Source: an uncultured Bacilli bacterium (GTDB taxonomy: Bacteria > Bacillota_I > Bacilli_A > RF39 > UBA660). Taken from it: a stretch of DNA of 62,849 bases. The notes beneath the pieces are model-generated. The model did no database searches. It was not told the origin of the DNA and saw only the letters and a program-made list of their open reading frames with translations. The position numbers and the translations under genes were made by a program. Location of the stretch: assembly GCA_947589675.1 (NCBI GenBank), contig CANQCI010000002.1, positions 1 to 62,849 of the forward strand. The letters are read 5' to 3'. Below, in pieces: positions 15,847 to 46,323 of this stretch; position 1 is the first letter of the stretch; the number at the start of each line of letters is the position of its first letter.

Positions 15847-17925
15847 ATGAAGAATAAAAAGAGATTTGTAGTTTTAGCTCTCGTGGCATTGCTTATTACC
15901 GTGATTGGTGCCACTTATGCTTACTTTGCTGCTCAAAGAGGGACTGGTGGTAGTGCTAATATCAATGTGGAAGCAGGAACCACCGACTCACTAACATTTA
16001 CGAAAGGAAATCCTATTACCATTGATGCGAATAGTGATAACTTTAAAAGTGGAGCCCCAAACCAATCAGGGGATACCACAGTGTCAGCCCACTTGGTAGC
16101 GAACAATGGTAATTATACGGCACTTGAAACTTATAATGTATATTTAAATTTAATTGATAATCCATTTGTTTATACAAGAGAAAATAGTCCAGAGTTAATA
16201 TTACAAGTAACAGATCCTGAGGGCAATCCTTTAGAAACTTTAGAAGATAAATCAATAAAACATGTCTCAATAACAGGTGTTGATGATGAAGAAGATCCTC
16301 TTGTAGGATTTGATATAACAACAGCCACAGGCTTAATTCCCATTAAATTAAATGAACCAATAGAAGCTAATCCAAGTGAAGATGATGCAACTAATGGTAA
16401 AGCAGATGAAGAATGGCAAATTAAAATAATTTTAATCAATCGTGACTATGACCAACAAGTAAATACAGGAAAAACTTTTAGTGCTCAAGCTGTTATAACT
16501 CATGAGGCATTACCAAATATTAAAGTTGAAACAGCAAATATTACTAATAACAGTATGAAGGTAATAGCAACTATTTCTGATTATGAGGATACGATTGATA
16601 AAGTGGAATTTAAAATTAACGATGAAGTAGATAATGGCTGGCATCAAGCGGATAATGATAGTGAAAATGTTTATAGTTATACATTTAATAATTTAACTCA
16701 AGATAAAAAATATGAAGTAAGTACGAAGATAAGCTTTGCTGATTCAGAAGTATTAAAAGTAATCGATGAAAGTATTACTTCAAAGAAAACATTAGCAGAT
16801 GCCTGTCCAAATGGCGGTAATTTAGCTGATTGTGTGATTGGTTTATATAATAAAAATAGTAATTATGAAGATACCAAATTATATTATCATGATAATAATT
16901 TGGTTGATGGAGCCAATGATTTATCGTATCGGTATACTGGGGGAGATTATACATTAACTAAAACAGCGACTGATGATGGGTATAATTCTATAAATGATTT
17001 GATTAAATTAGATTGTGGTGAAACGGTCAAACCAAATGCTAATGATTATTGTTCATCTGGGGCAAAATATACGTTAAATTATAAAAAAGAATTAGATAAT
17101 TTAATAACATTAAAGCAAACTTTAAGCCAAGCGTTAACAGATGGTTATATTACTGACAATAATGTTAAAAATTTTGTTTGTTTTGGCGGAGAATGCAACA
17201 ACAAAGATAATTTATATCGAATAATTGGTGCTTTTAATGTGAATGGAGAATACCGAGTAAAATTAGTAAAAGCCGATGTAGCAGATAAAAATTTACTTGG
17301 TGATACGGGGAATTATATAAGCCAAGGTTTTAGTTCATCTTATAATACTTACGTAGGAAACCACGATGAATGGTCAAGGTATACTTGGGATAAAAATGGT
17401 CAAAATGTTTGGAGTGAAAGTGAGCTTAATACATATAACTTAAATGATTATTATTTATCTAAGATAGGTACTTGGACAAGTAAAATAGCTGATACTAATT
17501 GGCAAGTAGGAGGTATGAGTACTAACGTAGGTTATGGACAGACTGTTCATGATGCTTACGAAAATGAATTGGGAACGTTAAATGCTTCCCTAACTTATCC
17601 GGCAAAAATAGGTTTGATGTATGTAAGCGATTATTACTATGGTGCTACGCAAGAACTTTGGAGTTTGCCTGGATATATTTCATCTTTAGTAGATTACCGA
17701 AAAGCTGCTTGGGATAACTGGGCATGGATTGGCGTTGATATGTGGTTTATTACTCCAAGTACAAACAATAATGCTAATGCATTTTATTCTCCAACATATG
17801 GTTATGTTTATGCACTTTCAACGACTAGTGCTTATGTTGCAGTACGACCAAGTTTTTACCTAAATAGTAATGTAAATTATATATCAGGGACAGGAACAGA
17901 AAGTGACCCAATTATAATAAATTAA
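15847..17925 (+). CDS. Family paralog A1 (type A): SipW-type signal and N-module, Ig/FN3-like middle module, Cys-rich linker, DUF6273-like C-terminal domain
   Basis: ATG at 15847 with ggaga 6 nt upstream. MKNKKRFVVLALVALLITVIGATYAYFAAQRGTGGSANINVEAGTTDSLTF. The C-terminal motifs NLYRIIGAF, AKIGLMYVSDYYYGA, WFITP, AVRPSFYLNSNV and GTGTESDPIIIN are shared with 9 other genes. Confidence 0.9.
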   Translation: MKNKKRFVVLALVALLITVIGATYAYFAAQRGTGGSANINVEAGTTDSLTFTKGNPITIDANSDNFKSGAPNQSGDTTVSAHLVANNGNYTALETYNVYLNLIDNPFVYTRENSPELILQVTDPEGNPLETLEDKSIKHVSITGVDDEEDPLVGFDITTATGLIPIKLNEPIEANPSEDDATNGKADEEWQIKIILINRDYDQQVNTGKTFSAQAVITHEALPNIKVETANITNNSMKVIATISDYEDTIDKVEFKINDEVDNGWHQADNDSENVYSYTFNNLTQDKKYEVSTKISFADSEVLKVIDESITSKKTLADACPNGGNLADCVIGLYNKNSNYEDTKLYYHDNNLVDGANDLSYRYTGGDYTLTKTATDDGYNSINDLIKLDCGETVKPNANDYCSSGAKYTLNYKKELDNLITLKQTLSQALTDGYITDNNVKNFVCFGGECNNKDNLYRIIGAFNVNGEYRVKLVKADVADKNLLGDTGNYISQGFSSSYNTYVGNHDEWSRYTWDKNGQNVWSESELNTYNLNDYYLSKIGTWTSKIADTNWQVGGMSTNVGYGQTVHDAYENELGTLNASLTYPAKIGLMYVSDYYYGATQELWSLPGYISSLVDYRKAAWDNWAWIGVDMWFITPSTNNNANAFYSPTYGYVYALSTTSAYVAVRPSFYLNSNVNYISGTGTESDPIIIN

Positions 17926-17946
17926 AAAAGGAGATGGTGGTGAAGA

Positions 17947-44481: not shown

Positions 44482-44499
44482 AAGAAAGGAAAGAATTAA

Positions 44500-46323
44500 A
44501 TGGAAAAGAAAAATACACCTTTAATAATATTAAGTATATTTATATTTTTAATTATTATATTTAGTGCAACATATGCTTATTTTCAAGCCCAAAGAGATAC
44601 TGATGCTAGTGCTGAAATTAACGTAACAACAGAAACAACAGATTCTCTTTCTTTCAATACAACTGATGCTATTAGTATTATGCCAACCATGACTTCATTT
44701 GCCTCAGGAACTGGTAACCAAAATGGGGAAACAAAAGCCACAGCAACACTAAGAGCCAATAGTAAAACTCATGAAGCTGTTGCTAATTATTATGTGTATT
44801 TAAAAATAACTAAGAATGAATTTACCTATTCAACTCCTGATAAAAAGCCAGAGTTAATTTTAACTATAACAGACCCAGATGGAAAAGTTTTGGGTGAAGA
44901 TAGTCCTTATAAAATAAATGGATATGACTTTAAAAATGTAACAACAAATGTTAATGAAAGTGATAGCCAAGAAGTAAAAGGATATGACGTCACCGAAGCT
45001 CATGGTTTATTAACAATTGCCTATGATAAAGAAATTGATGTAACAGTGACTGATGAACCAAATGGCGAAAAAAGCGAAGAATGGAAAGTGATTTTAACCC
45101 TTATCAATTTAGATTCAGACCAACAAATAAATACTGGAAAGCATTTTAATGGAGAGTTATTAATTCAAAAAGAAGAAATAGATGTAACCATAGCTGATGA
45201 AGCTATACCTAATGAACCACTTACTCAAGCAGTTATTAATCTATGGAATAATCTTTCCTATGAAGAAAGTAAAATAATCAAACATGATGGTAGTGATGCA
45301 AATGATGCTAATGACCAAAGTTATAGATACACTGGTGGAGATTATGCTTTAACCTCATTAGCTTTAGAAAAAGAATATCAATCTATTAATGATATTATTA
45401 AATTAACATGTGGTGATGTAGCCTCAGAAATTGCTAATGATTATTGTGCATCAGGAGCAAAATATACATTAGATTATAACGATGATTTGCAAGAAGAGTT
45501 TACTACTTTAAAAGCCGTATTAACTAAAGCAATAGAAGATGGTTATATATCCGATAATAATGTTAAAAACTATGTTTGTTTTGGTGAAGAGTGCACATCT
45601 AATAAAGATAATTTATATCGCATAATTGGTGCTTTTCAAGTCGAAGAAGAATATCAAATAAAATTGGTAAAAGCTGATATTGCTGGCAAAGAACAATTAG
45701 GTGAAGAAGGTAATTATGCAATCCGCGATAGTACAGCTTATAACACTTATTTGGGAAATCATAATGAATGGCCAAGATATAAGTGGGATGCAAATGGAAC
45801 AAATAGTTGGAGTGAAAGTGCTCTTAATAAAGAAAATTTAAACACATTTTATCTTAATAAATTAGGTGATTATGCAGATAAAATAGCTATGATGCAATGG
45901 CAAGTGGGTGGAATGACTTATCCTTTGGGTCATGAGCAAGGTGCACATACGGCTTACATAAATGAATTAGGTGATTCCAAAACCATTTCAAGTTACTCTG
46001 CTCAAATTGGCTTAATGTATGTTAGTGATTATTATTATGGAGCTACAAAAGACCGTTGGATTTTACCTGGATTTGTTTCTGATGGCAATGATTATCGCAA
46101 AGCAGCATGGGATAATTGGACATGGATTGGTGATGATTTTTGGTTTATAACGCCAAGTACAAGTGCTTCAACACATGCGTTTCTTGTTAGTACATATGGG
46201 CATGTACATACATTTTCTTCGGCAGATGATAGTCGAGCAGCCCGTCCAACATTCTATCTTAACGGTAATGTCAAATATGTATCTGGGACTGGCACAGAAA
46301 GTGATCCAATAATTATAAATTAG
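44500..46323 (+). CDS. Family paralog A10 (short, divergent type A lacking the Ig/FN3-like middle module)
   Basis: 607 aa. Divergent leader MEKKNTPLIILSIFIFLIIIFSATYAYFQAQRDTDASAEINVTTETTDSLSF. The segment of about 95 aa with VKVET..ISDYED..KKYEVSTK and the ACP..G..L..C pair is absent. The C-terminal domain is conserved. Confidence 0.9.
   Translation: MEKKNTPLIILSIFIFLIIIFSATYAYFQAQRDTDASAEINVTTETTDSLSFNTTDAISIMPTMTSFASGTGNQNGETKATATLRANSKTHEAVANYYVYLKITKNEFTYSTPDKKPELILTITDPDGKVLGEDSPYKINGYDFKNVTTNVNESDSQEVKGYDVTEAHGLLTIAYDKEIDVTVTDEPNGEKSEEWKVILTLINLDSDQQINTGKHFNGELLIQKEEIDVTIADEAIPNEPLTQAVINLWNNLSYEESKIIKHDGSDANDANDQSYRYTGGDYALTSLALEKEYQSINDIIKLTCGDVASEIANDYCASGAKYTLDYNDDLQEEFTTLKAVLTKAIEDGYISDNNVKNYVCFGEECTSNKDNLYRIIGAFQVEEEYQIKLVKADIAGKEQLGEEGNYAIRDSTAYNTYLGNHNEWPRYKWDANGTNSWSESALNKENLNTFYLNKLGDYADKIAMMQWQVGGMTYPLGHEQGAHTAYINELGDSKTISSYSAQIGLMYVSDYYYGATKDRWILPGFVSDGNDYRKAAWDNWTWIGDDFWFITPSTSASTHAFLVSTYGHVHTFSSADDSRAARPTFYLNGNVKYVSGTGTESDPIIIN

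Follow-up and report, generated by a model that had tools for sequence, protein, structure and literature searches.

The known SipW-dependent proteins, such as TasA, CalY and BsaA, are small subunits of the biofilm matrix, and the characterised substrates of SipW form fibres. TasA is cut at the site GGTWA↓AF (the arrow marks the cut). Here we describe a 62,849-nucleotide stretch of contig CANQCI010000002.1 (assembly GCA_947589675.1) from an uncultured Bacilli bacterium, the whole of which is referred to below as the window, in which 15 genes share an N-terminal module of ~205 amino acids (aa), the N-module. The set formed by these genes is a real and striking feature, made up of SipW-class exported matrix or surface proteins with an uncurated base, lectin-like variable heads and massive paralogy.

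The closest described system is that of TasA, TapA and CalY, encoded in the Bacillus operons tapA-sipW-tasA and sipW-tasA-calY (PF12389; PDB 5OF1 and 8AUR). These proteins carry the same class of signal as the family of the window, with a long hydrophobic region that ends in G-x-T-x-A, their mature N-terminus is likewise a short extension ahead of a beta-sandwich, and neither group has LPXTG. Mature TasA begins at residue 28, and its residues 28–38 are the donor strand (PMC9674648). The two groups differ in that the mature domain of the family has no sequence or Foldseek similarity to TasA and in that the family genes do not lie in a sipW operon; moreover, TasA has 261 aa, whereas the family proteins have 600–1150 aa, with Fn3-like and lectin-like passengers, and at least 15 paralogs per genome.

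The BsaA/BsaB/BsaC system of Clostridium perfringens (sipW-bsaA-bsaB-bsaC) has SipW-type signals as well (PMC11580942). Residues 28–38 of BsaA are disordered in the monomer model and insert into the neighbouring subunit, in the model proposed the signal keeps the newest subunit in the membrane until cleavage by SipW, and BsaA with a C-terminal fusion is still secreted and located at the surface (PMC11580942). The family extension is similarly disordered in its monomer AlphaFold model. Furthermore, in C. perfringens a large adhesin-like protein is exported beside the small subunits, and the sipW operons of related gut Bacilli encode a large protein that bears the family's C-terminal domain. The likeness has limits, as the BsaA model TIGR04090 matches 3 of 68 family N-termini, weakly, and the small proteins encoded beside sipW in this lineage resemble the family in the signal region only.

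Two further comparisons concern the distal part of the proteins. The IgA (immunoglobulin A) peptidase of Thomasclavelia ramosa (IgAse/ThomasA; PDB 9QA6) is a surface protein from a gut member of the Bacillota and the sole significant structural match of the C-terminal domain that is commonest in the family. The N-terminal domain of this peptidase has an enlarged C-type-lectin-like fold, is dispensable for catalysis (PMC12237041) and is annotated as DUF6273 (PMC12402451). It precedes an M64 metallopeptidase in a sortase-anchored protein, whereas the family domain is C-terminal, with no peptidase domain found, and sequence similarity between the two is undetectable. Sortase-assembled pili with tip adhesins and chaperone-usher pili also join a module that is constant, and polymerises or serves as the base, to a binding domain at the far end, and have tandem paralogous subunits. 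In contrast to these, the family has no LPXTG, pilin motif, sortase or usher in the window, and a head would be present on every long subunit and not at the tip only.

In order to define the family, we used a hidden Markov model (HMM) built from 125 N-modules, which recovered exactly 15 members in the window and no others. All are on the + strand with the N-module at their N-terminus, and their coordinates add up to 34,938 bp, which is 55.6% of the window (Table 1). This matches the preliminary description of the window, which had listed the same 15 genes and stated that they fill over half of it. The sequence motifs named there were equally found, both in the translations and in an alignment of 21 sequences (A1) with 18 invariant positions: a Lys-rich n-region, a Leu/Val-rich hydrophobic region and (I/V)GATYA(Y/F)F.AQ(K/R)G.GG, then the blocks GTTDSL.F, YNVYL, GFDIT and W.I...IN..DQ..N.GK.F, spread over ~205 aa. 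All 15 proteins also lack LPXTG, a C-terminal hydrophobic tail and a lipobox, as had been noted, and the set of features expected of a sortase substrate (LPXTG-like motif, hydrophobic segment and basic tail) was seen at the C-terminus of none of the 15. The class III signal of type IV pilins (G↓F-x-x-x-E; TIGR02532/PF07963) had no match in the family members tested; the same searches did detect a true prepilin in a related locus (L023, 17919–19871).

The N-module family is large and uncurated. A scan of one genome per GTDB species gave 166 relatives, from which 76 related loci were kept. These come from metagenome-assembled genomes of uncultured gut 'Bacilli' or 'Tenericutes' (for example CAG:460, UMGS686 and Ca. 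Onthocola, and bins from human, rabbit and chicken gut), save for one record labelled Agathobacter sp. The genomes of the relatives usually carry many dispersed copies, and the nine-gene tandem array of the window is unusual. When 1.84 billion representatives (50% identity clusters) were searched exhaustively with the HMM, there were 2,089 matches at E ≤ 1e-3, 702 of them at E ≤ 1e-30, and no Pfam or NCBIfam model covers the N-module.

The first 25–27 residues of the family members behave as a signal peptide. TIGR04088, the model for the SipW-cognate signal class, scored above its cut-off in one of the seven window proteins tested (19.7 versus 19 bits) and below it, at 11–15 bits, in three more. 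When 68 diverse family N-termini were searched, TIGR04088 matched 26 at E ≤ 0.1 (best E = 1.5e-5), in a tie with the FliL N-terminal model as the commonest NCBIfam match, as against none of 10 control N-terminal membrane segments from the same genomes at E ≤ 1. The –3/–1 rule is obeyed at the predicted site in 124 of 124 aligned sequences. Specifically, the residues found there in 125 sequences were Thr (113), Ser (6) or Ala (5) at –3, Ala (120), Ser (3) or Gly (1) at –1, Tyr (114) or Phe (10) at +1 and Phe (121) at +2, so that the family site GATYA↓YF parallels the TasA site, both being small-x-small followed by an aromatic/Phe stretch. SipW-type peptidases of the endoplasmic reticulum (ER) class are encoded in related gut Bacilli (TIGR02228, 85–96 bits against a cut-off of 51.85), and the signal plus extension of the family can be aligned to the N-terminal ends of proteins encoded beside sipW in the same lineage (hhalign probability 56–72%). 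The assignment of these signals to the SipW class in the preliminary description was therefore sound, and judging from these sequence features the family signal is probably cleaved by a SipW-type peptidase.

At the other end of the proteins, one type of C-terminal domain (~380 aa) is present in 11 of the 15, namely the nine paralogs of ~692 aa, the 44500 gene and the 3–3296 gene (genes are named by their positions). Its landmarks are YRYxGG, NFVCFG, LYRIIG, GLMYVSDY and RPxFYL, and in other genomes, too, family members most often end in it. The large protein of the sipW operons (429–436 aa; L023, L078–L081) ends in the same domain (E ~1e-12). The earlier statement that the common module displays many alternative C-terminal domains was thus too strong. 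Among the other members, the 17947 and 23688 proteins carry Glug repeats, the latter also has Laminin_G_3, and the 60536 protein has an ALK/LTK-type glycine-rich domain. A model of the 36082 gene's C-terminal domain had a mean predicted local distance difference test (pLDDT) score of 88.9 and a predicted template modelling (TM) score, pTM, of 0.92. Foldseek comparison with the PDB gave one significant match, the T. ramosa IgA peptidase 9QA6 (E = 2e-7, probability 1.0, 318 aligned columns), and the next matches were weak and C-type-lectin-like (LLT1, the Lcl C-terminal domain and CD23). From the aligned length and these weak C-type-lectin matches we infer that the aligned region of the peptidase is its N-terminal DUF6273 domain. 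A PDB sequence search with the C-terminal domain gave no match, and its likeness to DUF6273 is by fold only.

The paralogs differ most in this distal domain. The nine ~692-aa paralogs are 66–81% identical overall; per block of 25 alignment columns, identity is 73–94% in the N-module and 50–87% in most of the C-terminal domain, and falls to 34% over a segment of 29 residues directly ahead of the conserved RPxFYL. Ratios of nonsynonymous to synonymous substitution rates (dN/dS, Nei-Gojobori) follow the same order, with 0.11 for the N-module, 0.22–0.26 for the Fn3-like region and the C-domain framework and 0.78 for the hypervariable segment. Since dS among the paralogs is 0.7–1.0, the duplications are old, and the variation reflects old divergence of paralogs and not ongoing mutagenesis. 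The variable regions of diversity-generating retroelements (DGRs) usually lie at the C-terminal end of a lectin-like domain; no reverse transcriptase domain was found among the window ORFs (open reading frames) scanned, in a search confined to the window, which argues for diversification of paralogs and against DGR mutagenesis. The picture is one of a constant base and a repertoire of variable heads. We regard it as very likely that this is an exported, adhesin-like family with a lectin-like variable head, the predicted export and the putative binding function of the head both being well supported.

The AlphaFold2 model of the N-module of the 17947 protein (pLDDT 87) consists of a helix at residues 3–31 followed by a nine-strand beta-sandwich at residues 48–201. 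Between them lies the extension, whose residues 34–44 have a pLDDT of ~40 in the monomer model. Its sequence, which has an alternating hydrophobic pattern, is 94% identical among the paralogs, that is, conserved as strongly as the fold. In 125 sequences the core residues Tyr109, Asp145, Thr147, Asn181, Gln186, Asn189 and Lys192 are invariant, Glu117 is present in 124, and position 38 of the extension is Asp or Asn in 100. These polar and aromatic residues, together with Asp/Asn38, could mark a metal site or an isopeptide or ester cross-link, within or between molecules. For a cross-link, the candidates would be an N/D-E-K isopeptide triad or a Thr-Gln ester bond formed from Asp/Asn38, Glu117, Thr147, Gln186 and Lys192.

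We also observed complete genes of 205–230 aa that consist of the N-module with no passenger (L023 11841–12476, L021 7945–8613, L002 16694–17341 and L050 1877–2572). In three of the four the N-terminal extension is of a distinct and more hydrophobic kind (such as FFTVIKVSNVSP), and two of the four lie directly 3' of a long family member. Cluster P0012, which is related to these stand-alone N-modules, was the richest in member sequences, with 39, when homologues were first searched for.

As the best overall explanation, we tentatively propose that these are Sec-exported, multi-domain surface or matrix proteins of a spore-forming gut Bacilli bacterium, with heads on a constant base that would assemble into fibres by donor-strand insertion. 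The SipW-class signal would be cut after the T-x-A of GATYA↓YF, leaving the conserved extension of ~20 residues, then the beta-sandwich base of ~180 aa, usually one Fn3-like spacer, and a distal head which in 11 of the 15 would be a DUF6273-type, C-type-lectin-like domain with loops that are hypervariable among paralogs. The array may then represent a germline repertoire of ligand-binding heads, probably for glycans or for host or food surfaces, carried on one constant base. The base would be the assembly module: the amphipathic N-terminal strand of one subunit would enter the base of another, as in TasA and BsaA, to give homo- or heteropolymeric fibres with the heads at their sides. Until a SipW-type peptidase encoded elsewhere in the genome made its cut, the uncleaved signal would keep the youngest subunit in the membrane; such retention, if similar to that of BsaA, would explain how the proteins stay at the surface without LPXTG.

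Strand insertion is favoured because the extension equals the fold in conservation and is alternately hydrophobic, yet disordered in the monomer model, because stand-alone N-module genes of TasA-like size would fit a shaft subunit better than a lone anchor, because the characterised SipW substrates form fibres, and because a C-terminal fusion to BsaA is tolerated (PMC11580942). By analogy with TasA and BsaA a donor-strand fibre is plausible, and we put forward the polymerisation of base modules by this route as a possibility, with caution.

Several results weigh against this proposal. AlphaFold2 modelled residues 3–31 as one continuous helix across the proposed cleavage site, and FliL-type anchor models match as many family members as does TIGR04088. 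No sipW or tapA-like gene adjoins the family genes in the window or in the 76 related loci, and sipW lies within 10 kb of family genes in one locus only of the 76 (L023, contig CAKOHI010000007, where a sipW of 85 bits is ~10 kb upstream of two family genes). That the window holds no sipW had already been stated, and phmmer searches with two queries, B. subtilis SipW (an approximate sequence) and P0291, agree in finding no sipW-like ORF there. By our own estimate, one sipW in ~1.1 Mb of sampled flanks is roughly the expectation for one copy per small genome. Clustering of 851 neighbouring ORFs from the 76 loci gave no cluster in more than seven loci, and so no recurrent accessory gene. At the level of the head, the Pfam DUF6273 model had no match to the C-terminal domain at E ≤ 1.

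The same applies to the base, which the preliminary description had called TasA-like. The Peptidase_M73 model (PF12389) had no match at E ≤ 1 in seven window proteins and matched one of the 21 members of A1 (E = 0.006). A PDB sequence search with the N-module gave no support for TasA homology. The N-module modelled alone was a beta-sandwich, but no TasA chain was among the 50 best Foldseek matches listed for the PDB; the best TM-scores were 0.28–0.36, and the matches were generic sandwiches or jelly-rolls, with CBM3 among the weak ones. Foldseek against BFVD, a viral library, found nothing. Comparison by hhalign with 110 TasA-family sequences gave a probability of 41% (P = 2.7e-4) when signals were kept, confined to residues 2–47 (4–45 in TasA); when signals were trimmed on both sides, P was 0.10, the same as for controls with a reversed sequence or an unrelated domain. 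TasA was therefore rejected as a homologue of the N-module, as were the low-stringency pairings of NF..G with NlKPGD and of DQ..N.GK with QNkyQG, since trimming of the signal peptides abolished the similarity. On the same grounds we rejected a homology between the N-module and the small proteins beside sipW, the probability of 56–72% with signals giving way to P = 0.33 without them, as in controls. These small proteins did not match the BsaA family (TIGR04090) either, and a possible BsaA-like 'VAKW...WxW' motif in them is a lead only. Of the original interpretation as a whole, the signal class stands, the TasA-like module is not supported, and the variety of C-terminal domains is less than supposed.

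The single helix of the model, the rarity of sipW near family loci and its absence from the window would all fit an uncleaved signal-anchor, in which the helix is a type II anchor and the N-module a membrane-proximal stalk of a monomeric adhesin that holds its head outward, GATYAYF being an aromatic interface belt in place of a cleavage site. The uncharged stretch of ~19 residues is of membrane-spanning length, the members have no other anchoring signal, and both FliL- and Wzz-type N-terminal anchor models match as often as TIGR04088; because of the FliL matches in particular, we keep this alternative in consideration, although we think it unlikely. Small residues, which a signal peptidase needs and an anchor does not, occupy –3 and –1 in 124 of 124 sequences, TIGR04088 is specific to the family when compared with control anchors, and the region resembles the N-termini of proteins encoded beside sipW. 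Moreover, an uncleaved anchor accounts neither for a conserved, unstructured extension of 20 residues nor for the existence of genes with the N-module alone.

The evidence for a cleavable signal (the TIGR04088 matches and the –3/–1 rule) would serve equally for proteins that are cut, by SipW or by a general type I peptidase, and do not polymerise, the N-module binding an envelope component such as peptidoglycan or a secondary wall polymer, or the proteins being released as soluble lectin-like molecules. Strong purifying selection on the N-module (dN/dS 0.11) fits one constant partner, a generic beta-sandwich is found in many carbohydrate-binding modules (the weak Foldseek match to CBM3 included), and a cell wall is present, judging from SpoIIP in the window and from MurG- and MurB-like ORFs recognised by eye in relatives. 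Nevertheless, Pfam and NCBIfam gave no SLH, LysM, CWB or SH3b match, a stand-alone wall-binding module without a passenger has no obvious use, and the N-module, as inferred by eye from its sequence, is acidic, unlike most teichoic-acid-binding modules. We hold this alternative to be quite unlikely.

It is highly improbable that the genes are phage-derived, as receptor-binding or tail-fibre genes or DGR targets and not cellular surface proteins: DUF6273 is reported to be a lectin-fold domain that DGRs target in the receptor-binding proteins of phages, several PHROGs have matches to the 60536 glycine-rich domain, and the hypervariable segment is at the C-terminal end of the lectin-like domain, but all members have an N-terminal signal peptide, the neighbours are rpsB, tsf, frr, pyk and lepA with no phage structural genes or reverse transcriptase in the window, and a phage origin was rejected as PHROGs gave no match to the N-module. 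The PHROG families matched by that glycine-rich domain (60536–62404) are of unknown function (best E = 8e-40).

What is new in this locus is the SipW signal class on a large, uncurated family of long multi-domain proteins, with a paralogy so high that it fills half of a 63-kb chromosomal stretch. If the base is an assembly or anchoring device, it would constitute a new route of adhesin display in Gram-positive gut commensals, one that uses no sortase, lipid anchor or S-layer domain. A further, doubtful possibility is that the family builds a new kind of SipW-dependent fibre, from a beta-sandwich polymeriser unrelated, or no longer recognisably related, to TasA, with a diversified head on every subunit; together with stand-alone shaft subunits this would give a heteropolymeric 'bottle-brush' adhesin that displays many specificities at once in small-genome gut Bacilli. 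The heads correspond in fold to the accessory domain of an IgA protease from the gut and have hypervariable loops, which makes them candidates for the recognition of host glycans, mucus or dietary fibre. The family thus offers a testable entry to the surface biology of lineages that are known from metagenomes alone.

Table 1 Features of the window, with positions counted from its first nucleotide.
Position	Strand	Feature	Remarks
3..3296	+	Family member, cut short 5' by the edge of the window, 1097 aa seen	N-module, long middle region, DUF6273-like C-domain (aa 819–1083)
15847..17925	+	Family member of 692 aa, first of block 1	Signal, N-module, Fn3-like domain, DUF6273-like C-domain
17947..20790	+	Family member of 947 aa, N-module and Glug repeats	Reference protein of the N-module structure model
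17947..18021	+	Predicted SipW-class signal peptide of the 17947 gene, aa 1–25	Predicted cleavage after T-Y-A, before Y-F
18022..18087	+	Conserved extension of the mature 17947 protein, aa 26–47	Amphipathic A-[D/N]-[I/V]-x-[V/A/I] stretch and TTD motif; candidate donor strand
18088..18561	+	N-module beta-sandwich core, aa 48–205, nine strands	AlphaFold2 model and alignment
20809..23561	+	Frameshifted member, close paralog of the 17947 and 23688 genes	Single base missing near 21024
23688..27143	+	Family member of 1151 aa, last of block 1	N-module, Glug repeats, C-terminal Laminin_G_3
27191..27213	.	Palindromic terminator-like stem-loop	In the 537-bp gap between blocks
27549..27578	+	Promoter-like site, TTGCAA, 18-nt spacer, TATAAT	5' of the nine-gene array; consensus match only
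27681..44481	+	Eight tandem paralogs, 691–696 aa	70–81% mutual identity, 16–22 bp apart; signal, N-module, Fn3-like domain, DUF6273-like head
37027..38160	+	DUF6273-like, C-type-lectin-like C-domain of the 36082 gene, aa 316–693	Domain modelled
37996..38082	+	Hypervariable C-domain segment, aa 639–667 of the 36082 gene	Counterparts in every ~692-aa paralog, e.g. 29592–29675, 44314–44400
44500..46323	+	Divergent ninth array gene, 607 aa	N-module and DUF6273-like C-domain, without Fn3-like spacer
60536..62404	+	Family member of 622 aa	N-module, Fn3-like domain, ALK/LTK-type glycine-rich domain (PF12810, E = 9e-48)

The family genes of the window are arranged in two tight blocks (15847–27143 and 27681–46323) separated by 537 bp that contain a palindromic stem-loop and a promoter-like site, and two outlying members lie at the window ends. 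Within the blocks the intergenic gaps are 16–22 bp, but 126 bp precede the 23688 gene. Each of the 14 ATG starts lies a few bases 3' of a purine-rich, Shine-Dalgarno-like stretch, which in 7 of the 14 is GGTGGTGA or a close variant. The frameshift reported earlier for the 20809–23561 gene was confirmed by comparison with its paralog at 17947, and the HMM detected this gene as two pieces (20791–21063 and 21030–23558). A single base is lost after GATGGT, beside a short A run (window 20990–21063). The gene could be a true pseudogene or the frameshift an assembly error; the other contig of this organism, which covers 14 kb of the same region, ends ~190 bp into the 20809 gene, before the frameshift site. 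In a contig from another metagenome sample (L082, 28–3238), a gene that is N-terminally near-identical to the ~692-aa paralogs ends after 233 aa, where it adjoins an integrase-type transposase (rve, DDE_3) and an AAA ATPase in what looks like an IS21-like insertion.

The sipW operons of related gut Bacilli have a conserved order, with two small genes, the SipW-type peptidase gene, a further small gene and a large one (L023 1–2173; L078 8697–12295; L079 5774–9355; L083 8847–13062), and are conserved across L078–L085. In L083 there are two paralogs of SipW, and the large protein of the operon contains a Listeria-Bacteroides repeat. The prepilin-like protein of L023 mentioned above (17919–19871, 651 aa) is encoded 6 kb from family genes and combines the N-terminal methylation motif with a Listeria-Bacteroides repeat and a VWA domain, recalling the link of type IV pilins with BsaC, the VWA protein encoded in the sipW operon of C. 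perfringens.

The window has a G+C content of ~30%. The family has housekeeping and sporulation genes as its neighbours (rpsB, tsf, frr, miaA, pyk, SpoIIP, lepA and a gene of the HemN-like radical SAM type), which places it in the core chromosome of a spore-forming member of the Bacillota and not in a mobile element. Some of these neighbours have features of their own. Ribosomal protein S2 (window 3462–4373) has a C-terminal Rho_N-like extension (aa 268–303, PF07498, E = 7e-10), and in related contigs ribosomal protein L20 also matches Rho_N/HeH (L078 3327–3863). The interval between tsf and frr, the usual place of pyrH, holds two ORFs of 205 and 261 aa (window 5356–6767), both with N-terminal membrane segments and no Pfam match. 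Directly 5' of the last family member is an ORF of 289 aa (window 59567–60436) that by eye is like the Rpn/PD-(D/E)XK 'transposase-like' nucleases. Two adjacent small ORFs of 93 and 101 aa (window 51037–51625) appear by eye to be a RelB/DinJ-type antitoxin and a YafQ/RelE-type toxin, and a further ORF of the RelB family lies on an overlapping contig (L077 2701–2976), between the NAGPA and pyruvate kinase genes.

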